64,000 bases of DNA from Alphaproteobacteria bacterium CG11_big_fil_rev_8_21_14_0_20_39_49 (GCA_002787635.1 PCXK01000015.1:68869-132868); one strand, 5' to 3'; positions 912 to 49,429 are shown, counted from the first letter of the stretch. Translations and numbers: made by a program. The notes: generated from the sequence alone by a model not told the origin.

Positions 912-1892
912 CTACCCCGCCTTTCTTTGAAAATCAGTATCTAACGCTTGAATCATGCTTGACAATCCTTCGGCAAGTTTTGTTGTTAAATGTATATTCA
1001 AACGTGATGCAAGATATGACGGATCACCTACGGAAACAAAAATATCACCCTGACGGGCAGCTTTATAAATGCGGTGCATTTTGCAACCTGATACTTTTGC
1101 GATAATTTCCGATAGCTGATTTATAGATGTTTTAATACCTGTGCAAAGATTAACTTCATCATGCCCCCGATTATGATTGTTATGCTCTAAATTATGCATC
1201 GCCGTCATAAAACCTTTCACCGCATCGGCAATATAAACGAAATCCCTTATCTGCTCACCGTTACCGAAGATATTAATTATCTTTCCGTTTAAGATATGGT
1301 CTGTAAAAATCGATATAACCCCTGAATATGGTGAATTAGGGTCTTGCCTTGCACCGTAAACATTAAAAGGACGCAATCCTATATTAGGTACTTTATGTAC
1401 ACTCCATGCGACTCTGCCGTGTAGGTCGCAACTGAATTTATCCACGCCATAAGCGGTAATCGGAGAAGCTCTTTCCGTTTCTGCTATAGGTACTGCCTTG
1501 CAATCACCGTATATAGCAGCCGATGACGTATATACCACAGGCATTTTATATCCTCGTTCGCTAATTGCCTGAAAGATATTTACCGTAGCCGTAACATTTA
1601 CAGTATGGGTTTTTGACCATTCTTTTATGGATTTTTCTACAGATGCAACTGCGGCAAGATGAAAACAGCCGTCAATATTTGCAAGAGATTTGTTTACGGT
1701 GTTATAATCTGTAACATCGCCAATTAATAATAATGCTTTAGGATTTGCATTCTCAATTTTACCAGTAGAAAGATTATCAAGTATTACAACTTCATATCCT
1801 TTGTTAATTAGTGCATCTACAAGATGCGACCCTATGAAACCGCATCCGCCTGTTACAAGATAGCGTTTTTGTTTTTTATATGTTGCTTTCAT
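912..1892 (-). CDS. NAD-dependent sugar-nucleotide epimerase/dehydratase (extended SDR); substrate unknown, a UDP-hexose/UDP-HexNAc 4-epimerase is possible
   Basis: N-terminal Rossmann motif GGCGFIGSHLVDAL, catalytic YGVDK (YxxxK), and a 326-aa length typical of GalE/WbpP-type enzymes. It lies 28 nt downstream of glmS on the same strand. Confidence 0.85.
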   Translation of the reverse strand: MKATYKKQKRYLVTGGCGFIGSHLVDALINKGYEVVILDNLSTGKIENANPKALLLIGDVTDYNTVNKSLANIDGCFHLAAVASVEKSIKEWSKTHTVNVTATVNIFQAISERGYKMPVVYTSSAAIYGDCKAVPIAETERASPITAYGVDKFSCDLHGRVAWSVHKVPNIGLRPFNVYGARQDPNSPYSGVISIFTDHILNGKIINIFGNGEQIRDFVYIADAVKGFMTAMHNLEHNNHNRGHDEVNLCTGIKTSINQLSEIIAKVSGCKMHRIYKAARQGDIFVSVGDPSYLASRLNIHLTTKLAEGLSSMIQALDTDFQRKAG

Positions 1893-1920
1893 TTTCTTTA
1901 CTCATTTTAGTGTAAGACGT

Positions 1921-3753
1921 TTATTCCACGGTTACGGATTTTGCTAAATTACGAGGCTGATCGACATCATTGCCCTTTGCTACCGCCACATAGTATGCCA
2001 GCATTTGCAATGCAACCGTATAAATAACCGGAGTTGCAAATTCGTGGCAGTCGGGCATAATTATAACATTAGGTGTTATGTTATGTATTTGCAAAGCTCC
2101 TTTAGAGTCACATAACGCTATAACATTTCCTTTGCGTGCTATTGCCTCATAAATATTTGAACATGTTTTACCGAATAAATTATCAGACGGATTAATTGCG
2201 ATAATGGGAATATCTTTGTCAACAAGTGCAAGAGGTCCGTGTTTTAACTCTCCCGCCGCAATTCCCTCGGCATGGATATAAGTTAGCTCTTTAAGTTTTA
2301 AAGCTCCCTCCATTGCGACCGGATATGATGTTCCACGTCCTATAAACAAAACGCTCTTTGCACTAAATATGCTTTGTGCCAGAAAATATATCAACCTGTC
2401 ATTCATAAGTGTTTGTTCAACCGCATGAGGCAGCTCTTTCAATGCTTTTATCATTTCTATTAAACGGTTTTTTTTCAACACCCCACGAGCAGAAGCTATA
2501 TATATAGCAAGACATGCCATAACTGTAAGCTGTGCCGTAAAAGCTTTAGTTGATGCAACGCCTATTTCAGCACCTGCGAAGATAGGTAATACGACATCAG
2601 ATTCATTAGCCATTGTGCTTTGTGTAACGTTAACAACGCTTATTATGAATTGCTGTTTTTCTTTAGCGAATTTTAAAGCGGCAAGTGTGTCGGCGGTTTC
2701 ACCTGATTGGGAAATAAACAACGCAACTCCCCCTGCTTTTAAAGGAGTTTCCCTGTAACGGAATTCTGATGCGATATCTACACTTACATTAAGTCCGGAT
2801 AGTTTTTCTATCCAGTATCTACTTATCATTCCCGCATAGTTAGAAGTTCCGCATGCAACGATAGTGATTTGAGGCACATCGGCAAAATTAAACGGAAATT
2901 CCGGCATAATAATTTCATTGCCTGCTTCGTTGATATATTTGGAAAATATTCCCGATAATACGCTTGGCTGCTCCAGTATTTCCTTCATCATGTAATGGCG
3001 GTGAATCCCCTTTTCGGTAGTCTCCTGAGAATACCCTGAAATACTTGTGGAGCGGTTTACTATTTTGTTGTCATTGTCATATATCGTAACTACATGGTCT
3101 TCTATGTTAGCAATATCTCCGTCTTTTAGGTAAGAAACTTTAGAAGTAAAGGGTGAAAGTGAAATAGCGTCAGAACCCACATAAATACTTTTATTAGCAT
3201 AACCTATTGCAAGAGGAGAGCCTTGTTTTGCGGCAACCATTAGACTTTTCTTGCCTGAGAATATAACGGCAAGGGCATATGTTCCCGAAAGTTTCTTTAT
3301 TGCGGCTTCTACGGACTTAACGGGTGTCAGTCCTTTTTCAAGATTTTGTGTTATAAGATGTGCTATAACCTCGCTATCTGTTTCGGACTTCATTATTCTG
3401 CCCGACCTTAGAATCTCTTTCCGAAGATGCTGAAAATTTTCAATTATACCGTTATGAACAACCGCAACTTTATCGGTAACATGCGGGTGTGCATTATTTT
3501 CCGTAACTACTCCGTGTGTAGCCCAGCGTGTGTGTCCTATACCTATATTGCCGTTTATAGGGTTATCATATAGCTTTTTTTTCAGGAAATTAAGATTTCC
3601 TGTGCTTCGTACGCATAATATAGAACCGTCGCTTGCAACGGTAGCAATGCCTGAGGAATCGTATCCACGGTATTCGACACGCTTTAATCCGTCCATTAAA
3701 CGAGATGATACATCTATATTCTCATTCGCAACAACACCGATAATACCACACAT
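1921..3753 (-). CDS. glmS: Glutamine--fructose-6-phosphate aminotransferase (isomerizing)
   Basis: MCGIIGVV N-terminus (catalytic Cys2), two SIS domains, C-terminal ...LAKSVTVE. AAGGAGA lies 8 nt upstream of the ATG at 3753. The longer track ORF (to 3837) would bury the catalytic Cys. Confidence 0.95.
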   Translation of the reverse strand: MCGIIGVVANENIDVSSRLMDGLKRVEYRGYDSSGIATVASDGSILCVRSTGNLNFLKKKLYDNPINGNIGIGHTRWATHGVVTENNAHPHVTDKVAVVHNGIIENFQHLRKEILRSGRIMKSETDSEVIAHLITQNLEKGLTPVKSVEAAIKKLSGTYALAVIFSGKKSLMVAAKQGSPLAIGYANKSIYVGSDAISLSPFTSKVSYLKDGDIANIEDHVVTIYDNDNKIVNRSTSISGYSQETTEKGIHRHYMMKEILEQPSVLSGIFSKYINEAGNEIIMPEFPFNFADVPQITIVACGTSNYAGMISRYWIEKLSGLNVSVDIASEFRYRETPLKAGGVALFISQSGETADTLAALKFAKEKQQFIISVVNVTQSTMANESDVVLPIFAGAEIGVASTKAFTAQLTVMACLAIYIASARGVLKKNRLIEMIKALKELPHAVEQTLMNDRLIYFLAQSIFSAKSVLFIGRGTSYPVAMEGALKLKELTYIHAEGIAAGELKHGPLALVDKDIPIIAINPSDNLFGKTCSNIYEAIARKGNVIALCDSKGALQIHNITPNVIIMPDCHEFATPVIYTVALQMLAYYVAVAKGNDVDQPRNLAKSVTVE

Positions 3754-3981
3754 TATAAATTCTCCTTTTAAATTATTCAAAAGTCTGTATTGAGCAGTAT
3801 ATTTACAAGATACGCTCATAATGTTGCGATACCGCATTTTTGAGATATTTATAATATTTTCATATCATTATGGAAATATTATAAGATTGGTGTTTCGCTA
3901 TATAGGATTGTTATATTTTTCCCATTACATATACGTCTTCAGTATGAATTTTATAAATTCTAATTTTGAGGACGTTTATTT

Positions 3982-4839
3982 ATGCGAAAATTCATTGTGG
4001 CATTTGCTTGCGTGCTATTCCTATATGCACTTGCACCGGCACAGCATAGTAAAGATGAGAAATTTGCCGTATACTATACTAATAAACTTCCGGCAGATAG
4101 GTTTACTAAATATGATCTATTGATACTAGATAGTATCCATCACCCCTCTTTAAGGTCTATTTCAGAAAATACCCCTACTATCCTCGGATATATTAGCTTA
4201 GGTGAAGTGGCTGAAAGTAGCTCTTATTTTTCATTGTTCAAAAAAAGCAATCTTTTACTTACTGAAAACGAGAATTGGAAAGGCAGCTATGGTGTGGATA
4301 TACGAGAATCCTTATGGCAAAAAACAGTTATTGAAGAACTGATACCCGAAATATTAAGGAGTGGATTTAACGGTATATTTATAGATACGCTTGATACTCC
4401 GTTAGAAATGGAAAAACAGGATCCTAAAAAATATTTCGGCATGGCGGATTCGGCGATACAAATTATTCAGGCAATAAGATTAAATTATCCTACGATAAAA
4501 ATAATGGTTAACCGCTCCTATGATATTCTTCCCAAAATAGCTAGTTCTATTGATATGGTGCTGGGAGAATCGGTAAATAATACATATAATTTTGAAAGCG
4601 GTAAATACGAGCCTGTAAACGAAATATCTTATAATAATCAGGTTGAATGGTTAAAAGATGCCGTATCTTTTAATAAGTCTTTAAAGATATATACACTTGA
4701 TTACGCTAATAAAAGTGACATTACAAAAATTGCCGACATATACCGCATACAACGTGCCAACGGTTTTATACCTTATGTTACCACTATAGGTCTTGATGAG
4801 CTTATAGCGGAGCCTGTTATCGGCGGGAGTGTTAAATAG
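3982..4839 (+). CDS. Secreted glycoside hydrolase-like TIM-barrel protein (PF03537/GH114-type, PelA-hydrolase/Ega3-like)
   Basis: Signal peptide MRKFIVAFACVLFLYALAPA. Motifs ILGYISLGEV, WKGSYGVDIRESLW and GFNGIFIDTLD match the family pattern as I recall it. GAGGA lies upstream of the ATG. Confidence 0.6.
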   Translation: MRKFIVAFACVLFLYALAPAQHSKDEKFAVYYTNKLPADRFTKYDLLILDSIHHPSLRSISENTPTILGYISLGEVAESSSYFSLFKKSNLLLTENENWKGSYGVDIRESLWQKTVIEELIPEILRSGFNGIFIDTLDTPLEMEKQDPKKYFGMADSAIQIIQAIRLNYPTIKIMVNRSYDILPKIASSIDMVLGESVNNTYNFESGKYEPVNEISYNNQVEWLKDAVSFNKSLKIYTLDYANKSDITKIADIYRIQRANGFIPYVTTIGLDELIAEPVIGGSVK

Positions 4840-7079
4840 TGCGTAGCTTCATTTATAAGATTATTTTCGTATCTTGTGTTTTTCTAAACATATCCGATTC
4901 ATACGCTAAAGAGGTTGTTTTACCTCGCACCGTAATTGCGTTTTATGATTCGAAAATCAGCGAGCTGCATACATCGAATATCCATACTTTGGTGGAGATG
5001 CCGCTAAATCATTTAGGTATTAAGGTTGAATATTACGATATAAACAGCCCCCTTCCTGACATTAAGTCCCGTGAAGATGTCAGGGGAGTTCTAACTTGGT
5101 TTTTCTTTGAAACCAATATGGATAACCCCGAAGAATATCTTAAATGGGCGACCGATGTTGTAAATTCAGGAAAAAAATACGTTATAATAGGAAATTTAGG
5201 AGTAATAGGAGGAAAGAATAAGCCTAACATTATAGCGGTAAATAGTTTTATGGGTACACTTGGTCTAAAAGCCACCCAAGGCTGGACCGAAACCGCTTTT
5301 GACGTATCATATTCATATAATACGCCTTCTATGTTTTTATCGGAAAAGCCGTTTTTCTGGAATAGAACCTCTTATGAAACCGTTACTAACATAGATAATG
5401 AAAATAATAATACAGTACATTTATCCGTAACAAGGGGTAATGCTTTTGAAGAAAGCAGCGATCTTGTGATTACAGGTTCAAAAGGCGGATATGCCTCATC
5501 AGGTTATGCTATAAAAACTAATGTTATTGAGGGTAAAAAAACCCGTCAGTGGGTTGTTGATCCTTTTAAATTTTTACGCTTTGCGTTTGATACGGATGAT
5601 TTGCCGAAGCCCGATACGACAACTATTGCCGGAAGGCGTATCTATTACAGCCATATAGATGGTGACGGACTAAATAACGTAACGCAGCTTGAAGAATATA
5701 AAGGCAAGAACGTGCTATCGGCTGAAGTTATCATGGAAAAAGCTGTAAAACCATATCCGGGCTTACCGGTCACACTTACGGTTATTGCTGCCGATATAGA
5801 TTCTAAATGGATGGCGGCAAAAGACAGTGTAGAGGTAGCAAAAGCGTTTTTTGCCCTGCCACAGGTTGAAGCGGGCAGCCATACTTATAGCCACCCGTTC
5901 ATTTGGGAGTTTTTCAAAGAAGGTGATATAAATAAAGAAAAACCGTATATGCATATATACACCAAAACTACCAAAAATCCGGTATGGAACCCAAATGAAG
6001 ATGAAAATGTTTTGGCAAGCCTTTTTTCAAAAAAACCGCCTGCAAAAGTCATGGTAGACGGTAATAAAACTCCAAGAGCATATGCCAATTTTCCATTTGA
6101 TATTAAAAAAGAAGTTCAAGGTTCGATCGATAAGGTAAACTCAATTTTACCTGAAAATAAAAAAGTTAAAATTATTATGTGGTCGGGTAATTGCAGTCCT
6201 TGGGACGCGGTTATACGTGCCTCCCGTGTTGCCGGTGTGCAGAATATAAATGGAGGCGACACCATGTTTGACCCGCAACACCCTGATTATGCTAACGTAG
6301 CTCCGATTGGCAGACCGGTGGGAAATGAACGTCAGATATACGCTTCAAGCAGCAATGAAATACCATATACAAATGAGTGGACGAAAAACTTTAACTCTTA
6401 CAGTCACTTAAAAGAAACTATGATTAATACCGAACTGCCTATCCGTCTGAAGCCTATTAATATTTATTATCACCTTTACTCCGGAGAAAAAGCGGCGGGT
6501 CTTAACGCTTTACTTACAAATCTTGACTATGCATCAACCCAGAACATAGCTCCGGTTACTACAAGCGATTATACTCATATTGCCGAAGGTTTTTATGATA
6601 CCGTCATTAGCAAAGCCGGTAATGATATATGGAAAATAACAAACCGTGGTCAACTTGCGACCATACGATTTGATAACCTTATGTTTAAATCTGTTGATTT
6701 TATAAAGTCCAAAGGAGTTGTAGGTCAAAGGCGTTTGAACGGTAGTTTGTATGTATATTTAGATAGCAGCCTCCCTACTACATTTATAGCACTGAAAGAT
6801 AACCCGTCTTATTTTACACAGTCAAAGGAAGCCGTCCCATATCTGATTGAAAGCAGATGGTTGATTTCAGGCTTAAGCCGCAACTCAAATTACGTGTCTT
6901 TTAAGACGCATGGTTTCGGTATCGGAACGATGGTTTGGAATGTGCCTAAAAACGGCAATTACCTTGTCCGTATTAACGGAAAGGACTACACAACCGTAGC
7001 CTCGGAGGATAATAAACTTAAATTACAGATAGATATTGATGCTACTGCACCGTTGCAACTTAAAATAACCAGAGTATAA
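4839..7079 (+). CDS. Secreted polysaccharide deacetylase-like protein (CE4/CE18-type metal-site motifs) with an uncharacterised N-terminal domain
   Basis: The GTG start overlaps the upstream TAG (TAGTG), with GGGAG 10 nt upstream. Signal peptide present. SHIDGDG (Asp pair) and GSHTYSHP (H-x3-H) resemble carbohydrate-esterase motifs 1 and 2. Confidence 0.5.
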   Translation: MRSFIYKIIFVSCVFLNISDSYAKEVVLPRTVIAFYDSKISELHTSNIHTLVEMPLNHLGIKVEYYDINSPLPDIKSREDVRGVLTWFFFETNMDNPEEYLKWATDVVNSGKKYVIIGNLGVIGGKNKPNIIAVNSFMGTLGLKATQGWTETAFDVSYSYNTPSMFLSEKPFFWNRTSYETVTNIDNENNNTVHLSVTRGNAFEESSDLVITGSKGGYASSGYAIKTNVIEGKKTRQWVVDPFKFLRFAFDTDDLPKPDTTTIAGRRIYYSHIDGDGLNNVTQLEEYKGKNVLSAEVIMEKAVKPYPGLPVTLTVIAADIDSKWMAAKDSVEVAKAFFALPQVEAGSHTYSHPFIWEFFKEGDINKEKPYMHIYTKTTKNPVWNPNEDENVLASLFSKKPPAKVMVDGNKTPRAYANFPFDIKKEVQGSIDKVNSILPENKKVKIIMWSGNCSPWDAVIRASRVAGVQNINGGDTMFDPQHPDYANVAPIGRPVGNERQIYASSSNEIPYTNEWTKNFNSYSHLKETMINTELPIRLKPINIYYHLYSGEKAAGLNALLTNLDYASTQNIAPVTTSDYTHIAEGFYDTVISKAGNDIWKITNRGQLATIRFDNLMFKSVDFIKSKGVVGQRRLNGSLYVYLDSSLPTTFIALKDNPSYFTQSKEAVPYLIESRWLISGLSRNSNYVSFKTHGFGIGTMVWNVPKNGNYLVRINGKDYTTVASEDNKLKLQIDIDATAPLQLKITRV

Positions 7080-7080
7080 A

Positions 7081-9807
7081 ATGTATCTTAAAATAGCCGG
7101 ATTTATTTTAATAATAATCACCATTGTGGGAGTCTCAAGTTTTTATGCCGCACCTGAAAAAGGCGACATAGCTTTAATGCAGCTTGAAGACAAAAAATTT
7201 AGTAAGTCTATCGCATATTACAAAGAACAGTATTCTTTGAATGAAGATTCTATAAATGTGGTTATACCCCTAATGCGAATTTATGATTATTATGGTCATA
7301 ACCAAGAAAATATAAATATTATGGAATCGTTTGTAAAACGCAATCCTGATTCTGTAGAAGCAGTAAAGCATCTAGCCTCACTTTATAAGGTAGAAAAATA
7401 TTATGAGAAATATTGCAGAAGTCTGGAACAATTGCAAAAAATCGATCCGTCGGTTGAAAGCTTACAAATACTGGTTAATACATACCGTTTTTTAGGAAAC
7501 GTAAAAGAAGAAATGTCAGCACTTGCAAGATTGCTGCAAGATGACTCATATGATGTATTGGAAGAAGATTATATGAGGCTTGCATCGCTATATATGCTTG
7601 ATAACGGAAATTATGCCGATGCATCTGCAACATTGCTGGATTTTTACAACAGGAAACCAAAAGATGTTAGCATAAACTCCGCTTATATGGCGGTACAAAT
7701 ACTCGGAGAACTTGGCGAAACAGATAATGCCGGTAATGTAATAAATTTCTTTTTAAAAACCTTGAAAAAAGAACACAGGCAAGATAGTGCTATCGTATTA
7801 TCTGCCGTTTTGCATCGTGCCGGAGAACTTGCGTTTGCTTATGAGATACTCAGTCCTTACTTGGATAACCTTGATAACTCGCCGGAATTATTGCGACGTG
7901 TTGTAGAAATAAAACTAGCCCTCAAAGGAGAGCGGGAAGTTTTTACCGATTTAGCCGCAAGGTTTGAACAGAAAAAACTACCGAGTGGTTTACATATTCC
8001 GTTGCTTGATCTGGCAATCCAATTTAATGATGATAAATTATTTGAGTCTTTGTTTCAGGAGTCTTTTTTTCAGGACATGGACGAATCATCGCTAGTGCGG
8101 TATGTGGATAAAATATCTCAGATAAAAAAACCTTATCTTGCTTCAATCCTGCAAAAACAACTCGGGCAAGATTATCTGAAGTCCACCCCCTTGCTGACGG
8201 CTTTGTTGAATGTTACGATAAACACCTCCCCTAACTCTATAAACGAGCTTAATAACTTGCCTGCAAAACTAATGGCATCTTCTGATAATAAAAGGATACT
8301 TATTAAGTTTTATTTTCGCCACGGCAAGCATTTACGAGCTTTTTCATTGATTGAAACCATTTCCGTATCCTATATTTTAGATTCGATTAGCCCTTTACAG
8401 TTTGCAGAAATTTATTTGTCGGTAAATAAAGCAGATATAGGCTTGGCACGTATAAATGATGCAATCAAAAAAGAGTCGGGTATCGCCGATAATAAAAAAC
8501 AAATTATGTATGATACGGCACTTTTCTTAGAATCGGGAGCAGGAGACGAGGACGGTGTATTTGCATGGCTTGAAAACCACAAGGAGGCAAAAGCAGGCAC
8601 TCTTTCCGATGCCGCTTACATAGCTAGTAAATATAAGCATTTTTCATTAGCAGTTATAATTTTCGAGCGGTTTTATAAGATTGATAAAAACCCTAAAATG
8701 TTAATAGAACTATCGGAAATGATGATAAGGGATAATCAGTATGCGACAGCTGCCAAACAGCTTGAGCCTCTGGTAGAAGATAATAAGGCGGCAAGAGCCG
8801 CATATATTAATTGTATGGCAGCATGGATACGTTCTACAGGAATAAATTCACGGGATTCAGAAAAAGCACAGCTTGGCGTATTCCTCACCGGAGTAATGAA
8901 AAACCGTGATCTGTCTTTAGATGAAAAGCGTAATGTTGCGTATCTTCTTTTGGGATCGGGTTTTCGCAGAAAAGCTGAAGATATTTTTATAGAACTGGCA
9001 TCCACTCAGCCATTTGCAAGTAATGACGTATCGGAATTACTTGGATTTTGGGGTAATAAATTCTCACCTAAAGCTAAAATCTGGATTGAACGCAGGGCAA
9101 GGCGTGCCGAAGGTCTGGAAAAAGCATTGTGGCTTTCTCATATAAATGATGCCGTATATCCTGAAATTGTAATATCGGTATTCGATAGCGAAGGTACGAA
9201 ACAATATTCTTTGATAACAGATGAATATATAAATTCACTCGTATTAACACAAAACAAAGAGCGTCTTGAAAAACTTATTGCAGGCGAGATAAGCATTGAA
9301 GAAAGCACTAAACGCCTTGAAAGGCTGGCGACCATAGCATATCAGGAAGATTTACCCGAAGTGTCTGTGAGCGGTTGGAAGAAACTTTATAAAATCGACC
9401 CGCAAAATAATGAAGCGGAAAGGGCATTGGGATTAGCAGCATTTAATAAGAACCGTTTTAAAGAGGCGGAATATTTGCTGAAGAAATATTTAAGCAAGAA
9501 CAAGGGCGACCAGCATGTAAACTATGCTTATGGAGAAATACTGCTTCGTAACGGTAAAAATGATAAGGCAGATGAGTATTTTAATCTTGCTTATAAACAA
9601 ATATCCGAAATTAAGAACAAAAATATCTATCAGATGATTACGGAGGCTTCGGTTTTGTACCGCATTAACCGCGTTGAAGACTCATTTGACCTGTACGATA
9701 AACTATTGAAGGAAAATCCTGAAAATAAATCGCTGCGGGTGGATTTTGCCCAAAGACTGATTGAGAATAAGCGATACACCGAGGCATCTTTGCTAATAAT
9801 GAATTAA
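7081..9807 (+). CDS. Large TPR-repeat protein with an N-terminal membrane anchor/signal (PelB/PgaA TPR-region-like)
   Basis: N-terminal hydrophobic segment IAGFILIIITIVGVSSFYA. Repeated about 34-aa A/Y/L-rich TPR-like units run throughout (for example AERALGLAAFNKNRFKEAEYLLKKYL). It starts 1 nt after the upstream stop. Confidence 0.7.
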   Translation: MYLKIAGFILIIITIVGVSSFYAAPEKGDIALMQLEDKKFSKSIAYYKEQYSLNEDSINVVIPLMRIYDYYGHNQENINIMESFVKRNPDSVEAVKHLASLYKVEKYYEKYCRSLEQLQKIDPSVESLQILVNTYRFLGNVKEEMSALARLLQDDSYDVLEEDYMRLASLYMLDNGNYADASATLLDFYNRKPKDVSINSAYMAVQILGELGETDNAGNVINFFLKTLKKEHRQDSAIVLSAVLHRAGELAFAYEILSPYLDNLDNSPELLRRVVEIKLALKGEREVFTDLAARFEQKKLPSGLHIPLLDLAIQFNDDKLFESLFQESFFQDMDESSLVRYVDKISQIKKPYLASILQKQLGQDYLKSTPLLTALLNVTINTSPNSINELNNLPAKLMASSDNKRILIKFYFRHGKHLRAFSLIETISVSYILDSISPLQFAEIYLSVNKADIGLARINDAIKKESGIADNKKQIMYDTALFLESGAGDEDGVFAWLENHKEAKAGTLSDAAYIASKYKHFSLAVIIFERFYKIDKNPKMLIELSEMMIRDNQYATAAKQLEPLVEDNKAARAAYINCMAAWIRSTGINSRDSEKAQLGVFLTGVMKNRDLSLDEKRNVAYLLLGSGFRRKAEDIFIELASTQPFASNDVSELLGFWGNKFSPKAKIWIERRARRAEGLEKALWLSHINDAVYPEIVISVFDSEGTKQYSLITDEYINSLVLTQNKERLEKLIAGEISIEESTKRLERLATIAYQEDLPEVSVSGWKKLYKIDPQNNEAERALGLAAFNKNRFKEAEYLLKKYLSKNKGDQHVNYAYGEILLRNGKNDKADEYFNLAYKQISEIKNKNIYQMITEASVLYRINRVEDSFDLYDKLLKENPENKSLRVDFAQRLIENKRYTEASLLIMN

Positions 9808-9842
9808 GCAGCAACATTTAGAAAAAGCGAGAGGAATATATT

Positions 9843-11093
9843 ATGAATAAAATTAAAGGAGTTATAACCGTACTAATAGTAACGTCCGTTATATTACCTG
9901 CATATTCGAGTAATAATGACGAATCTGACAGGCGACTCAATTTAACAAGGGTTTCATACTACATACAAACCGATGAGCTGAGAAAGGCGTTTAATCTTAT
10001 TGATGAACTGGAAAAAAAATATCCTGACGATGTTCAGCTATTTATAGTTGCGGCAGATTTAAATATACGAGTCAATAACCGAGGCAAGGCTTTAAAATAT
10101 ATTGATAAGGCACAAAAATTAGACCCTTTGAACGAGGATCTTGATTCTATAAAAGCCTCATTAATGCATGAGCATGGGCAATCGGTAAATGCCAGTGCAA
10201 GAATAAAGAAGAGTAGCCTGATAACTGAGCAATTCTTAAAAATGTCAGGCAGAGTTTACGTAAATCCTATTTACAATATTAATATTATTGCAGAAACCGA
10301 TCGTGTAAAAAGTAAAAACGCAATAGTCCGTCAGGACGTAATAGCCGAGAAGTTCGACGGTCAACTTTGGCGGACTAATTTATCACTTAACGGATTATTT
10401 GAAGACGGAGATGAATTTTCAGCTTCACTATATTTAGGTGATGAAGAAACAATCGGTGTGGGTGGAGAATATAGTTTTAGGGATAGGTTTGGAAGCACAT
10501 CTATCGGCGGTAATATTTCACAGCCTGAATGGGAATATATCGAAAGTTTAGTCGGTAACGGAACAAAAGATGACATATATATCGGGCGTAAACAATATGT
10601 CACGAAAAGTGTTAGGGCTTCTTTAAGTACGGGATTAAATAGGTACAACCTTGATGAAGCTTCAAATGTTGCCGAATCACATTCTGTTGACGGTGCTTTG
10701 TCTTATTATTATCCTTACGTTTTGTCGCAAACAAACGATGATATACTTAACTTCGGATTAAATTACTCCCTTGGAGCCGAATATTTTTTAAACAGAAAAA
10801 CAAAAACCGCACCAAACGGTGATAACTTTAAACCGTTCCCTGCCCAAACATATGAAATACATGCTATGACATTTGAAATATCAAGAGACATCAAACAAAA
10901 ATTCCACGCAGGAGCGTTTGCCGGATATGCTAAAGACAGGTTTGGTGATAGCGGTCCTCTTTATGGTACTCAATTACGCTATTCCCCTAGTAAGAAGATT
11001 GATATAGGCATTTATGCATCTGAGGGAATCATCGGAGAAAGCAGGGCGGGTAAAGTAAATCAATTAGGTGTTAATTTTAAATACAAGTGGTAA
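9843..11093 (+). CDS. Outer-membrane beta-barrel protein with an N-terminal TPR segment (porin half of a PelB/PgaA-like exporter)
   Basis: Signal peptide. TPR-like N-terminus (YYIQTDELRKAFNLIDELEKKYPDD...). The C-terminal half has alternating hydrophobic/aromatic beta-strand patterns and ends ...LGVNFKYKW (aromatic C-terminus typical of OMPs). GAGAGGAA RBS. Confidence 0.55.
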   Translation: MNKIKGVITVLIVTSVILPAYSSNNDESDRRLNLTRVSYYIQTDELRKAFNLIDELEKKYPDDVQLFIVAADLNIRVNNRGKALKYIDKAQKLDPLNEDLDSIKASLMHEHGQSVNASARIKKSSLITEQFLKMSGRVYVNPIYNINIIAETDRVKSKNAIVRQDVIAEKFDGQLWRTNLSLNGLFEDGDEFSASLYLGDEETIGVGGEYSFRDRFGSTSIGGNISQPEWEYIESLVGNGTKDDIYIGRKQYVTKSVRASLSTGLNRYNLDEASNVAESHSVDGALSYYYPYVLSQTNDDILNFGLNYSLGAEYFLNRKTKTAPNGDNFKPFPAQTYEIHAMTFEISRDIKQKFHAGAFAGYAKDRFGDSGPLYGTQLRYSPSKKIDIGIYASEGIIGESRAGKVNQLGVNFKYKW

Positions 11094-11098
11094 TATAT

Positions 11099-11138
11099 GT
11101 GAAAGTCAAAACTAATTATTACAAGTTTTGACTTTCAC
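11099..11138. terminator. Perfect 14-bp-stem hairpin between convergent genes (possible bidirectional terminator; no clear U-tract)
   Basis: gtgaaagtcaaaac-(12 nt)-gttttgactttcac, located between the stops at 11093 (+) and 11164 (-). Confidence 0.4.
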
Positions 11139-11163
11139 AACTTAATCTTAGTGCAAATTAGAT

Positions 11164-11550
11164 TTAAAAACCAAATCTGCTTTTTAACCAGTCCATATCT
11201 AGCTTGTCAGGATTTTCTATGTATTCATCCGGCCTTTCCACTACATTTTTCAGGTAACTTAAATTAAACCTCCACGCTTTTTTGATATCCCGCGGAGTCC
11301 CGTTAAAAACAAGTTTCATATCTTTACATTGTATTGAGAAAGCACCTTTTGGCACGTCATCATATATAGCAAGCTCAATAGGATTGCTGTCAACAATTGT
11401 ATGGACAGATGATAATATGTCCTTATATGGAGACTTATCTTTGTGCCTATCAAGAGCCTTGTTGCAGATATCCAAATATTTGTTGAATAGCTCTTCTATC
11501 TCGATTTGTTCAGGAGATTTTTCAGTCGTAATGTTATTTTCCATTTTCAT
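11164..11550 (-). CDS. Hypothetical protein (128 aa)
   Basis: Uninterrupted ORF with AAGGA upstream. I recognised no family. Confidence 0.5.
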   Translation of the reverse strand: MKMENNITTEKSPEQIEIEELFNKYLDICNKALDRHKDKSPYKDILSSVHTIVDSNPIELAIYDDVPKGAFSIQCKDMKLVFNGTPRDIKKAWRFNLSYLKNVVERPDEYIENPDKLDMDWLKSRFGF

Positions 11551-11694
11551 ATTCCTTAAATTTTTTAACTATTGTTAAAGTCTCCTTTTATCCTGATTCC
11601 ACAAGCTATTTCCAATATATTTGAAAGGTACATCAGAAGTTGTTAGTGACAATTCGGTATGATTGATTGCCACTAACAATGAATATTATTTTCT

Positions 11695-11820
11695 TTATTC
11701 ATCTTCCGGTTCTAGTTGTGTCTGATTTAACACAGTTGAATAGTTACGAAACGCAGTAATACGCCTTTCTATCTCTTTAGGTGTTAAAGCGGTTTTTTTT
11801 AGCTGATTATAATCTACCAT
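11695..11820 (-). CDS. Candidate small protein (41 aa), below the ORF-track cutoff
   Basis: Hand translation gives MVDYNQLKKTALTPKEIERRITAFRNYSTVLNQTQLEPEDE. AGGGGG lies 6 nt upstream of the ATG. Confidence 0.35.
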   Translation of the reverse strand: MVDYNQLKKTALTPKEIERRITAFRNYSTVLNQTQLEPEDE

Positions 11821-11919
11821 AATATACCCCCTATTGTTTTGTAAGTATAAATTTACTACGGTTAATTTCTAAAAATATTATCTTAATAACCTCATAGAAT
11901 CACATTCTTAAAGTATTAT

Positions 11920-12081
11920 TCATTCCCATGAGTTGCGTTTGGATTCTTTTTTAGAAACTTCATCAAAATTATCGGATAGTGAAATACTACTGTCTAGTCT
12001 ATCCCAGTTACGTTGGTTAATCAGGCGTTTTTTTCTTATCCTTTCTTTTAACTGAGAGTATTTTTTTTTAAATAATATCAT
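11920..12081 (-). CDS. Candidate small basic protein (53 aa), below the ORF-track cutoff
   Basis: Hand translation gives MILFKKKYSQLKERIRKKRLINQRNWDRLDSSISLSDNFDEVSKKESKRNSWE. GGGGGAA lies 7 nt upstream of the ATG. Confidence 0.35.
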   Translation of the reverse strand: MILFKKKYSQLKERIRKKRLINQRNWDRLDSSISLSDNFDEVSKKESKRNSWE

Positions 12082-12371
12082 AATTGTTCCCCCATTTTAT
12101 TTGTTTTGGTTTAGCTTTAGAAGCACCATGCCTCATATATGAAACATATCTGTTATTTTCAAATAAAGATTTGATAACTATCAATTTTTGCTACTAAACG
12201 TGGCAATAGTCATTATTGTATGCGGCTTAAAAGTATGGTGGAAACCATCGGCATGTTTATCAACTCTTGATTTGATAGCTGTCAAATCATTTTCTTTGTT
12301 AGGGTCTTACTATAAGTTATAGAGGCAGAATAATCTGGTTCTTTAACTTAAAATAAACTTGGAGACATATT

Positions 12372-12548
12372 ATGAATATTCCGGAAAATAAAATTTCACA
12401 AAAATACAGTAGTTCATCTCTTTCTGACAAAGAGCAAAAACAGCAGGATCAGAAAAAACAGGATCAGAAAAAACAAGATGACAAAGAAAAAAATAATCCG
12501 AAGGCTGATAAGAACAACAGCACTTCAGGTAAGAACATCTTTAAATAA
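12372..12548 (+). CDS. Candidate small K/Q/D-rich protein (58 aa), below the ORF-track cutoff
   Basis: MNIPENKISQKYSSSSLSDKEQKQQDQKKQDQKKQDDKEKNNPKADKNNSTSGKNIFK. GGAGA lies 7 nt upstream. A strong hairpin terminator follows directly. Confidence 0.4.
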   Translation: MNIPENKISQKYSSSSLSDKEQKQQDQKKQDQKKQDDKEKNNPKADKNNSTSGKNIFK

Positions 12549-12564
12549 TCCGCTGTATTTAATA

Positions 12565-12600
12565 ATGACGGGCGGTATTTTTTATACCGTCCGTCATTTT
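12565..12600 (+). terminator. Rho-independent terminator
   Basis: atgacgggcggtat-ttttt-ataccgtccgtcat gives a 14-bp stem with one G:U pair, followed by TTTT. Confidence 0.6.
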
Positions 12601-12638
12601 ATTATAATGCAAGCCATAAAAAAACAAGGGTATCGTAA

Positions 12639-47139: not shown

Positions 47140-48180
47140 TTAGTCACTGATTAACAATTTCAATAAGTCGTTTTTGTATCTTGGATATATTTGCGAGTTG
47201 TTTACTACCAACCTAGTCCACAATTCAATTTTATTCTTATTTGACACTTCCTCACGCCAATATCGGCTTAACTCAATCACATTCTTTGATTTTATAAGAC
47301 GTTTAATATCTTTGATATTTTCAACCAAATGACCATAAATTCTTGGGAGTTTAATGTCATTGCCATTTAAGTTTATAAGTATTTGTCCACCTGCACTAAA
47401 AGTATCACGTAAAGATGGCGAAACAATACCGTACTTTGACACCAACCAAGATGATAACTGCAAGTATTTTTTAGGACTTGCACCAAACAACTCAGGAAAC
47501 AAAGCAAAAGCCTCTATCCTTTTTTGCCTTTTCTCACTTTCATTTAAATTACTCCATTGAGTGACCGTTAGATTGGAGGTCTTTTCACTATCCATCCACC
47601 ATAGCTCATCACCTTCTTTTAATTTAGACCTGTAATAATCAACAATAGGTTTTATAGGGTTTTTTCTGGTTCTCAGGTCATCATAGCTAATGCCAAGCTT
47701 ACTAAAAATAGTATCTTCTTCACACAAATTCATGTCAATTAAATATCTGGGCGAGTGAGTTACCGCCACCTCATATAAGCAATCCTCATATTTACGAAAT
47801 TTAAAATCAACGGGATTGGATAACTTACCGAATAATAGATATATTTTTTCTATTCCATCAACTCTTGAGCTTTCTAAAACACTATTTCCCGTACTCTTCC
47901 AATCTTTTCCTTTTGAGGTTTTAACCTCAACGCCATAATATTTATTAGCAATAATATCAGGAAATTTTTGTCCGGAAATTCTTTCTATAGAGCCTTCAAA
48001 TTTAGTTCCCTTAGCATGTTTGACCATAGAGTCTAAAACATCTTCTTCCAAAGCTATACCGCCTCTTGAAAGGTAATAACTTTTCTTAGACTCCGACTCT
48101 TTTTTGAGGTGTGTTTGCGTAGCCTCAAGTAGCGACACAAACTGCTCTTCCGGAGCTTGTTTGTTCTTTGATATAATCAT
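47140..48180 (-). CDS. Putative type II restriction endonuclease (PD-ExK)
   Basis: FPDIIANKYYGVEVKTSKG contains a PD...ExK-type catalytic motif. It lies immediately downstream of, and overlaps by 56 nt, a C5 DNA methyltransferase gene. No family-level match recognised. Confidence 0.55.
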   Translation of the reverse strand: MIISKNKQAPEEQFVSLLEATQTHLKKESESKKSYYLSRGGIALEEDVLDSMVKHAKGTKFEGSIERISGQKFPDIIANKYYGVEVKTSKGKDWKSTGNSVLESSRVDGIEKIYLLFGKLSNPVDFKFRKYEDCLYEVAVTHSPRYLIDMNLCEEDTIFSKLGISYDDLRTRKNPIKPIVDYYRSKLKEGDELWWMDSEKTSNLTVTQWSNLNESEKRQKRIEAFALFPELFGASPKKYLQLSSWLVSKYGIVSPSLRDTFSAGGQILINLNGNDIKLPRIYGHLVENIKDIKRLIKSKNVIELSRYWREEVSNKNKIELWTRLVVNNSQIYPRYKNDLLKLLISD

Positions 48181-49429
48181 TTGTTGTTACTTCACTTTTA
48201 AAAACTTCATTCCAAATTTTTTGTATTCTTTGTGCTAAATTATAGGCTAACAAAGGGGGAACTGCATTTCCAATTAATTTATAAGCCTCTGAAGCACTTA
48301 GGCTGGCTTTTCCATTATTAAACACAAACTCATAGTCATCCGGAAATGTTTGTATTCTGGCACACTCCCTAATAGTTAACCGCCTTTCCTCTAACCCTTT
48401 ATTTAATTCATTTTCTATCTTTCCACCATGTTCAAGGGAAAGTCTTCTGAACTCAATATTTCCATGATGCTCCGACCTTATAGTGGGGGATACACCATCT
48501 AACTTAATCTCAGTTTGTCCCTGACAGTGCTTACCCATCCATTTTGCTTTTGAGTATTTCTTTTGAGATAAGTCTTTTTTTTCAATTTCAGGCTCATTCA
48601 ATTCATTAAAAATCTTATCCAAGGTTACATTAGGCAATAATATATTAGATATGCTATCACTTCCCAAATAGTGAGTTGGCTTAGGAAAAGGAAAAAGCGG
48701 CGAGTCGTGAAACTCTATTAGCTCCTCGACACCATCCTTTAAAGCCTCTTTTAAAAAACCGATAAAAAATACTCTTTCCCTGTTTTGTGGAACTCCATAA
48801 TTAGCGGCATTTAATAATTTAGCCTCAACAACTAAATAACCATTACCACCGATAGAAGAAAAATCCTTTTGAATTATTTCTTTAGCATCACCAAGAGTAA
48901 GCAACCCTTTTACATTCTCGGCTATAAAAACTTTGGGCTTTACTATATCTATAACCTCTCGCATCCAATAGTAAAGCATTCCACGGCTTTCTGTTGTAGC
49001 CTCATCAACATGCTTGTTGTTATGGCATTTGTGGGAACTAAATCCTTTTCTTTTTCCAGCTAAACTAAAATCCTGACAAGGAAATCCACCAGTAACAACA
49101 TCAATGTTTTTAGGAAACTCGAAAATTCTACTTCTAGCCGCTTTTACTAAGTCAACTATGCTATTCGAATAAAACTTCGATTTTGTGCTTCTGGAGTTAA
49201 AATAATTTTCCCAAGCCACTTTTGCACTAGGCTTAATATCATTTGCAAAAACAGTTTCAAAACCAGTTGGTGCAAGCTTTACAAATCCATTTTTATTGGA
49301 CTTTCTGACCCAATCGGGGTATAAGTTCTTATTAACACAATCCTCTAAAACGTCAAAATTTCCTTCAAAGCCTAAATCCATCCCTCCGCAACCGGAGAAT
49401 AACGACAATACTTTCTTACTTTTTTTCAT
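48125..49429 (-). CDS. DNA (cytosine-5)-methyltransferase
   Basis: Motif I LFSGCGGMDLGF, IV GGFPCQDFSLAGKRKG, VI ENVKGL, VIII QNRERVFFIGF, IX RECARIQTFPDDYEF, X GNAVPPLLA. Confidence 0.9.
   Translation of the reverse strand: MKKSKKVLSLFSGCGGMDLGFEGNFDVLEDCVNKNLYPDWVRKSNKNGFVKLAPTGFETVFANDIKPSAKVAWENYFNSRSTKSKFYSNSIVDLVKAARSRIFEFPKNIDVVTGGFPCQDFSLAGKRKGFSSHKCHNNKHVDEATTESRGMLYYWMREVIDIVKPKVFIAENVKGLLTLGDAKEIIQKDFSSIGGNGYLVVEAKLLNAANYGVPQNRERVFFIGFLKEALKDGVEELIEFHDSPLFPFPKPTHYLGSDSISNILLPNVTLDKIFNELNEPEIEKKDLSQKKYSKAKWMGKHCQGQTEIKLDGVSPTIRSEHHGNIEFRRLSLEHGGKIENELNKGLEERRLTIRECARIQTFPDDYEFVFNNGKASLSASEAYKLIGNAVPPLLAYNLAQRIQKIWNEVFKSEVTTNDYIKEQTSSGRAVCVAT

Follow-up and report, generated by a model that had tools for sequence, protein, structure and literature searches.

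Pel modification and export genes of the locus

The locus described here lies close to the start of a 64-kb stretch of DNA (64,000 nucleotides, PCXK01000015.1:68869-132868 of assembly GCA_002787635.1; hereafter the window) from the uncultured Alphaproteobacteria bacterium CG11_big_fil_rev_8_21_14_0_20_39_49, and its genes are related to those for modification and export of the exopolysaccharide Pel. Six open reading frames (ORFs) occupy positions 912 to 11,093 (Table 1), two on the minus strand for a PelX-like epimerase and GlmS and, divergent from these, four tightly packed genes on the plus strand, in which PelA is represented by a hydrolase gene (pelA_H) and a deacetylase gene (pelA_DA), and PelB by genes for a tetratricopeptide repeat (TPR) scaffold and a porin. 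Base 4839 is common to the TAG stop codon of pelA_H and the GTG start codon of pelA_DA (TAGTG overlap), a single base (7080) separates pelA_DA from the TPR gene, and a spacer of 35 bases (9808-9842) precedes the porin gene. These coordinates and junctions, first given in an earlier note on this DNA, were reproduced by our ORF list, and the sequence motifs cited in it (ILGYISLGEV, WKGSYGVDIRE, GFNGIFIDTLD, SHIDGDG, GSHTYSHP and the C-terminal NFKYKW) are all present in the translations. The Joint Genome Institute (JGI) gene calls on the source contig, Ga0210050_1000030, give identical products of 285, 746, 908 and 416 residues for the four plus-strand genes.

Table 1. Features of the locus in window coordinates; negative positions lie upstream of window position 1, and L167 denotes the fetched stretch of the source contig
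Feature	Position	Strand	Evidence
pelG	from about -9811	-	PF16933 on L169
pelF	-8273 to about -9811	-	NF038011, PF11997
pelE	-7198 to -8265 (L167 19091-20158)	-	similarity and position
pelD	-5863 to -6900 (L167 17756-18793)	-	transmembrane region and GAF
Small helix-turn-helix (HTH)/zinc-ribbon ORF, 154 residues	-5672 to -5208 (L167 17101-17565, -)	+ in window orientation	weak motifs
RTX protein gene, 654 residues	-4779 to -2815	+	GH191-like barrel and RTX repeats
PrtD-type ABC exporter gene	-2458 to -761	+	TIGR01842, 655 bits
HlyD-family type I adaptor gene	-740 to 657 (3' part in window, 1-657)	+	TIGR01843, 213.7 bits, over cutoff
pelX-like UDP-GlcNAc/UDP-GalNAc C4-epimerase gene (extended SDR)	912-1892	-	PF01370; PelX structures
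glmS, glutamine--fructose-6-phosphate aminotransferase (probable start)	1921-3753 (ORF open to 3837)	-	TIGR01135, NF001484
Promoter match, sigma-70-like, between glmS and the four-gene operon (228-bp divergent intergenic region)	3840-3868	+	TTGAGA-17-TATCAT, 10/12 positions
pelA_H, predicted stand-alone periplasmic GH166-like endo-alpha-1,4-N-acetylgalactosaminidase with N-terminal signal peptide	3982-4839	+	PF03537, 5TCB, catalytic residues
pelA_DA, predicted PelA without hydrolase domain, signal peptide	4839-7079 (GTG start)	+	9CGY match; seven active-site residues
Predicted PelB N-terminal part, membrane-anchored periplasmic TPR scaffold	7081-9807	+	TPR models; colinear with fused PelB-like proteins
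Predicted C-terminal part of PelB, with signal peptide, some 2.5 TPRs (27-110) and 16-strand outer-membrane beta-barrel (114-415)	9843-11093	+	AlphaFold2, Foldseek, hidden Markov model (HMM)

The product of pelA_H matches the Pfam model PF03537 (1.5e-17, 64 bits), which bears the name of glycoside hydrolase (GH) family GH114. Among solved structures its best relative is the hydrolase domain of Pseudomonas aeruginosa PelA (5TCB, E=1.2e-15, residues 27-274 against 26-269), whereas the GH191 TM1410 chains and 9EP5, the latter deposited under the GH114 name, are matched at about 5e-6 only, and the fungal enzyme Ega3 is absent among its matches to sequences of the Protein Data Bank (PDB). Residues D135 and E196 align to D160 and E218 of the P. 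aeruginosa protein, whose numbering was fixed by the E218A variant 5TSY, so that both catalytic carboxylates are kept; these are the two residues mutated to obtain a hydrolase-dead PelA (PMC12022489). By these sequence comparisons the product is probably a TIM barrel of the PelA-hydrolase type, GH166-like.

The product of pelA_DA gave no match to any Pfam or NCBIfam model, including those for PgaB and carbohydrate esterase (CE) family CE4. Its sole relative among PDB sequences at E<=1 is full-length PelA of P. thermotolerans (9CGY, E=1e-60, chain residues 254-818), and the match takes in the mixed alpha/beta domain, the de-N-acetylase domain of CE21 type and the beta-rich C-terminal domain that make up the protein, leaving out the hydrolase domain. 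Residues H272/D274/D276, H348/H352, E507 and H545 align to H515/D517/D519, H589/H593, E712 and H750 of the P. thermotolerans protein, and all seven are invariant or nearly so across 20 homologues. The residues to which they align are known from mutagenesis or structure, and Van Loon et al. (PMC12022489) define them as the base activator, catalytic base, metal triad, acid activator and catalytic acid of CE21, a new family founded by PelA and distantly related to CE18 and CE4 (PMC12022489). Motif 1 carries the CE21-specific histidine (H272), which PelA employs instead of the arginine of CE4 and CE18 enzymes; in CE18 this arginine, the activator of the catalytic base, belongs to motif CM3. The fungal deacetylase Agd3 gave no match at E<=1 among PDB sequences. 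The nearest homologues come from metagenome-assembled genomes labelled Rickettsiales or Alphaproteobacteria; a few homologues are tagged DUF2194 (PF09960). On this evidence the predicted product is a CE21-type PelA deacetylase without a hydrolase domain.

The two halves of PelB could be recognised by different means. The TPR protein is colinear over residues 9-906 with residues 10-890 of a fused PelB-like protein of 1302 residues (E=1.7e-67). For the porin, an AlphaFold2 model computed with 85 sequences, the alignment being built from matches in a library of representatives, reached a pLDDT of 94.8 and a pTM of 0.87 (pLDDT 32.6 for a single-sequence model), with TPR helices followed by 16 strands. 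The earlier note had expected an outer-membrane barrel at this place, which the model bears out, and the Foldseek search with this model returned P. aeruginosa PelB in the PelBC complex as top match (9H80 chain M, E=9.4e-15, TM-score 0.65/0.69), with BcsC and PgaA next. Fused PelB-like proteins are also matched, over their last 370-460 residues, by an HMM of 36 stand-alone porins (E 1e-49 to 1e-108). Searches of PDB sequences with the porin as a single sequence, a full profile and a barrel-only profile gave TPR noise or nothing and no solved PelB; the likeness to solved PelB is visible at the level of the fold only. The barrel alone finds 483 cluster representatives at E<1e-3 in a library of 1.84 billion proteins, with stand-alone and fused forms mixed. 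Taken together, the matches to 5TCB and 9CGY, the alignment with fused PelB and the fold of the porin bear out the proposal that the four plus-strand genes are PelA and PelB, each split in two.

The divergent pair was also identified as had been proposed. The epimerase belongs to PF01370 (1.6e-53), and its best solved relatives are the structures 6WJB/6WJ9/6WJA of P. protegens (E=2.4e-62, residues 9-316), ahead of other 4-epimerases; these structures are tied to PelX, which adjoins 136 pel loci and in 24% of these lies divergent upstream of pelA (bioRxiv 10.1101/2020.05.26.111013). GlmS scores over cutoff with TIGR01135 (741.9 bits) and NF001484 (753.7 bits). Because both matches begin at residue 29-30 of the open frame and the JGI call has 610 residues, translation probably starts at the methionine before MCGIIG. 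In one close relative (contig P0004/P0125, JGI sample 3300050046, 61% identity in the deacetylase), a 34-kb contig bears two glmS genes, of which one adjoins pelX, and this suggests that the pel-linked glmS is an extra, dedicated copy. Genes for ankyrin-repeat and leucine-rich-repeat proteins flank the pel genes on that contig and hint at a host-associated lifestyle.

The promoter-like site listed in Table 1 is a consensus match alone and weak evidence, such sites being hardly enriched over shuffled sequences. A stretch of about 1.5 kb on the 3' side of the porin gene (11094-12638, G+C 0.346) contains very short ORFs and one of 128 residues (11164-11550, minus strand) for which no family match was found. 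The remainder of the window, from 11 to 64 kb, consists of housekeeping genes such as pheST, lepA, two cysteine desulfurase genes, hscA, ppk, ppx, ilvC, leuA, hflK and degP, and a scan of the window with Rfam and for tRNA gave zero matches. At 47140-49429 on the minus strand, a gene for a C-5 cytosine DNA methyltransferase (PF00145, 2.5e-59) overlaps the start of an ORF of 346 residues with no family match, in a stretch of lowered G+C (0.35-0.36); the two are possibly a restriction-modification pair.

Synthase genes upstream of the window and the intervening secretion cassette

No genes for a glycosyltransferase, a synthase (PelG-like proteins included) or a cyclic di-GMP (c-di-GMP) receptor occur in the 64-kb window. 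The statement of the earlier note that no synthase is linked thus holds within these bounds and fails for the locus, since the window begins too late to include the synthase genes. We looked up the epimerase with 10-kb flanks on the source contig (window coordinate = 11893 minus L167 coordinate), and pelD, pelE and pelF follow on the same contig, the synthase module starting with pelD 5.9 kb upstream of window position 1 and 9.8 kb from the start of pelA_H. The N-terminal half of PelF (L167 20166-20981) scores 184.6 bits with the PelF equivalog model NF038011 against a cutoff of 100, and 1.2e-72 with PF11997. L167 ends inside pelF, and the PelF fragment P0172, obtained in a homologue search with a low-GC PelF whose matches did not include the complete PelF of this organism, is 100% identical to it. 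The 1.6-kb contig that carries P0172, L169, is identical in DNA to L167 over an overlap of about 565 nucleotides and continues with the C-terminal GT1 half of pelF and then pelG, which overlaps the pelF stop codon; the first 95 residues of PelG match PF16933 at model positions 1-95 (1.8e-27). The synthase genes are linked to the export half, and their apparent absence is an artefact of the window edge. The first ~35 bases of L169 (1-35) read ...AGACGTGTGCTCTTCCGATCT, an Illumina adapter remnant in the public European Nucleotide Archive (ENA) assembly, the remainder being identical to the JGI contig.

The PelD-like protein has a transmembrane region and a GAF domain (PF13492, 1.8e-7), and all 42 of its 42 BLAST matches are proteins of the PelD cluster; a PDB search with it gave no PelD match. 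In an alignment of 29 homologues, the PelD of this organism and those of its nearest relatives, L002, L006, L007, L166 and L162, end right after the GAF domain and are without the C-terminal GGDEF-like domain of about 130 residues that in the longer homologues bears the c-di-GMP motif LRxxDLAF (RxxD). Control of Pel by c-di-GMP through a PelD without this GGDEF-type domain is therefore unlikely here, judging from the alignment, and Pel may be regulated independently of c-di-GMP in this clade. PelE is, in Pel systems, an inner-membrane protein with a TPR-like domain whose gene lies between pelD and pelF. A curated model for it does not exist and the assignment accordingly rests on position and similarity, its 40 matches (40 of 40) all being proteins encoded where related loci have PelE (best 32% identity, E=2.7e-64). 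A PelC-like ORF was not found in the ~86 kb of contig seen (the window together with stretches L001 and L167).

Conservation of this arrangement was examined in one genome per GTDB species, with the deacetylase alignment as query, and 376 confirmed stretches encode a relative. The 80 loci that were retrieved bear the labels Alpha- and Gammaproteobacteria, Nitrospinota, Acidobacteriota, Chlamydiota and others. Clustering of their ORFs revealed a recurrent order of hydrolase, deacetylase, TPR protein, (porin), (PelC), PelD, PelE, PelF and PelG, the relatives' PelF and PelG matching curated models at 1e-133 and 2e-117. The hydrolase gene lies directly 5' of the deacetylase gene in half of the loci (40/80), and the TPR gene sits between the deacetylase gene and either the porin gene or pelD in 64/80; a separate porin gene occurs in 34 of the 80 and a PelC-like gene in seven (7/80). 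Where no separate porin gene is found and pelD is directly next, the TPR gene has 1279-1617 codons and ends in the porin domain. Flanks of at least 9 kb on either side are available for 29 loci, and 27 of these contain pelD/F/G. The earlier note had left to be checked whether the four-gene order is kept in relatives, and the same order does recur, usually with pelDEFG next. The alternatives raised there for want of a synthase, a new architecture or action on a foreign polymer, lose their support with pelDEFG linked upstream here and adjacent in most relatives.

Intermediate rearrangements in the closest relatives (about 60% identity in the deacetylase) indicate a route by which the order seen here could have come about. 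L166 has its pelA/B unit back to back with pelDEFG and divergent from it, and L002 has pelDEFG upstream and divergent, with an HlyD gene beside pelG. On the P0004/P0125 contig, some 5.5 kb of unrelated genes come after pelDEFG, and beyond these lie pelX, glmS, a gene for an ankyrin-repeat protein and the pelA/B unit. A metagenome scan with PelF patterns revealed that loci with pelDEFG only also exist. One low-GC metagenomic locus with pelDEFG and no pelA/B nearby (L137 7633-10909) has a pelE of 126 codons and a pelG split into 105 and 343 codons; frameshift errors would account for this if the genes are not pseudogenes.

Between the two pel halves lies a type I secretion cassette (L167 11236-16672) of an RTX-GH191-like gene, an ATP-binding cassette (ABC) exporter gene and an HlyD gene, in this order. 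The N-terminus of the RTX protein is a TIM barrel of the TM1410/GH191-like kind (PDB 9EUZ, E=3.6e-33; TIGR01370, 168.7 bits; PF03537, 1.9e-22), and two blocks of RTX nonapeptide repeats are also present (PF00353, 6.6e-48). One GH191 enzyme has been reported as Pel-cleaving (PMC12054363), and the RTX-GH191 protein looks, from its sequence, like a secreted enzyme degrading Pel or the fungal polymer galactosaminogalactan (GAG); our literature search found no paper tying GH191 to RTX or to type I secretion.

Homologues of the GH191-like domain (50-55% identity) occur directly beside pelG in two other loci, L091 (14186-15463, minus strand) and L087 (10951-12213, minus strand), the first of which also carries an HlyD/ABC pair. 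In both proteins RTX repeats are absent, and a Ser/Thr/Gly-rich linker and a C-terminal module of about 100 residues are present; the module resembles one repeated in the RTX protein and may be a type I secretion signal domain. Remoter GH paralogues (24-31% identity) follow pelG in L104, L110, L112, L119, L122, L138 and L160. The 154-residue ORF between pelD and the RTX gene has an IS1595-like zinc ribbon and HTH_23/HTH_7 motifs, all weak. It could be left over from the insertion that brought the secretion cassette into the pel locus, or it may be a regulator.

Interpretation and rival explanations

We consider that positions 912-11093 constitute the precursor-supply, modification and export half of a complete but rearranged Pel system in this uncultured alphaproteobacterium, with a probability of roughly 0.85. 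What carries this reading is homology, the conservation of catalytic residues, the fold of the porin and synteny, all observed directly in this analysis. For polymer chemistry, enzyme activity, protein contacts and regulation we draw on analogy with the characterised Pseudomonas and Bacillus systems, and the following scheme is worded in that sense. GlmS would feed the hexosamine pool, and the PelX-like epimerase would convert UDP-GlcNAc to UDP-GalNAc. The chain would be polymerised and translocated by PelF, of glycosyltransferase family GT4 with an N-terminal DUF3492 domain, together with the inner-membrane proteins PelD, PelE and the polytopic PelG. Bound to the TPR scaffold in the periplasm, the stand-alone PelA_DA may partially de-N-acetylate the polymer, and the stand-alone PelA_H may trim or degrade it, before export across the outer membrane by the protein of TPRs and 16-strand barrel. 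The expected product is Pel, an exopolysaccharide of alpha-1,4-linked GalNAc/GalN.

Several observations weigh against such a reading. About 10 kb of other genes separates the two pel halves, and PelG is known from its first 95 residues alone, on a different assembly. PelD is without the c-di-GMP-binding domain that P. aeruginosa requires, and no pelC was found in the contig stretches seen, though PelC, which forms an outer-membrane lipoprotein ring, is essential in P. aeruginosa. The deviations in PelC and PelD lower strict membership of a P. aeruginosa-type system, not the functional reading.

A modification and export module without a synthase of its own, handling a polymer from an unlinked synthase or from another organism or host, would agree with the gene content of the 64-kb window, and this contig was also missing from the matches of the metagenome scan with PelF patterns. 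The latter result is explained by the use of exact patterns, as this PelF reads FIDYFWSW and not LDYFWSW. With pelD, pelE and pelF 5.9-9.8 kb before window position 1 on the source contig, pelG next, and pelD/F/G adjacent in nearly all fully flanked related loci (27/29), we regard this explanation as highly improbable. Very little also speaks for a bacterial counterpart of the fungal galactosaminogalactan cluster, with a deacetylase of Agd3 type (CE18), a hydrolase of Ega3 type (GH114) and an epimerase of Uge3 type. The name of the Pfam model matched by the hydrolase points that way, as does the distant relationship of CE21 to CE18 and CE4, all of which act on alpha-1,4-GalNAc polymers (PMC12022489). 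However, at E<=1 the deacetylase matches PelA only among PDB sequences, not Agd3, and carries the CE21-specific H272 in place of the CE4/CE18 arginine; the hydrolase matches the PelA domain at 1e-15 and 9EP5 at ~5e-6 only, with Ega3 not among its matches, and the partner genes are those of PelB, PelD, PelE, PelF and PelG, not of a Gtb3-type synthase. The likeness to Agd3/CE18 and Ega3/GH114 drawn in the earlier note appears remoter than the direct matches to PelA (CE21 and GH166).

A decaying, non-functional pel remnant broken up by insertions would agree with the two insertions that part the halves, the type I secretion cassette and the small ORF bearing transposase-like motifs, with a PelD truncated relative to most homologues and with the absence of pelC; pelE and pelG also look fragmented in the low-GC locus L137, which may be unrelated to this organism. 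Nevertheless each of the ten pel-related ORFs seen is intact, the catalytic residues are kept wherever they were checked, and the porin models at a pLDDT of 94.8. The short PelD and the absent pelC are common to several relatives with otherwise intact loci, and an identical 746-residue deacetylase is found on 7 contigs and an identical epimerase on 11 contigs from different samples, and decay appears very unlikely.

Beyond a complete but rearranged Pel system, a wider proposal can be put forward tentatively, and as a whole it is rather doubtful: that the clade runs Pel without c-di-GMP and PelC and with a dedicated type I secretion system for an RTX-GH191 endo-galactosaminidase, and that split PelA and PelB genes are the widespread form, of which the Pseudomonas fusions are a special case. 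If so, the RTX-GH191 enzyme would be an extracellular calcium-dependent tool that remodels or disperses the organism's own Pel, or attacks the Pel of competitors or fungal GAG.

A Pel modification and export apparatus without synthase is not real, and the finding reduces to a variant pel locus, of use chiefly in annotation and comparative studies. GenBank names at least the hydrolase (PIR38690.1/COV35_05885) and the porin (PIR38693.1/COV35_05900) "hypothetical protein", and since 376 stretches encode the stand-alone deacetylase family, the annotation of many pel loci is probably incomplete and would gain from a model for stand-alone PelA_DA. The absence of PelC from the stretches seen and of the c-di-GMP domain of PelD indicates that two P. 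aeruginosa essentials are dispensable or replaced elsewhere, and the type I-secreted GH191-like hydrolase in the locus is a candidate anti-biofilm enzyme. The natural separation of PelA hydrolase from deacetylase, and of PelB scaffold from porin, could also offer ready-made constructs for the study of the PelA-PelB interaction.

Comparison with known systems

The PgaA/PgaB system of poly-N-acetylglucosamine (PNAG) and BcsC of cellulose follow the same plan as this locus, with a TPR scaffold in the periplasm, a barrel in the outer membrane and a deacetylase or hydrolase in the periplasm. In contrast to these, the deacetylase here is of CE21 and not of the PgaB-type CE4, and the linked synthase is PelF/PelG and not PgaC or BcsA. 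A PNAG-type or cellulose-type system was rejected, the PgaA and BcsC models scoring 15-18 bits (PgaA 15.6-18.2) against cutoffs of 367-1043.

PelB fission, separate genes for the PelA hydrolase and deacetylase and a divergent pelX have each been published already. Fission of pelB, with pelA/pelB rearranged relative to the synthase genes, was described by Bundalovic-Torma et al. 2020 (PMC7112194, Fig 5 ii-iv) in aquatic thermophiles and a few other taxa, whereas the split form is found here in many lineages. In the PelA structure paper only full-length homologues were analysed (177 of 1000 BLAST hits), and the stand-alone diderm form was therefore seen, not discussed. Our literature search did not find the combination described, namely a diderm with four PelA/PelB genes, no pelC, a short PelD and halves separated by a cassette.

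In Gram-positive pel loci, separate PelA_DA and PelA_H together with a divergent galE-like epimerase are the rule (PMC7112168). Both traits are shared by the pelDEA_DAFG locus of Bacillus cereus ATCC 10987 (Whitfield et al. 2020, PMC7112168), where pelA_H and the epimerase gene, of GalE/PelX type, are accessory genes. The present organism is a diderm, however, and keeps PelB-type export through TPR scaffold and porin, and its pelA_H and pelA_DA are adjacent and translationally coupled through the TAGTG overlap, whereas in B. cereus pelA_H is a flanking divergent gene. The PelD of streptococci is also without a GGDEF domain, and control of Pel independent of c-di-GMP has been proposed for them (PMC7112168).

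Compared with the pelABCDEFG and pelX genes of P. aeruginosa and P. protegens, PelA and PelB are here encoded by two genes each, pelC was not found in the stretches seen, PelD ends after its GAF domain, and pelDEFG is encoded on the other strand at a distance of about 10 kb from pelA_H, with glmS, pelX and the secretion cassette in between. Shared with those systems are the catalytic sets of PelA, the TPRs and 16-strand porin of PelB, the GAF domain of PelD, PelE, the GT4 enzyme PelF, PelG and the PelX epimerase, with pelX divergent upstream of pelA.

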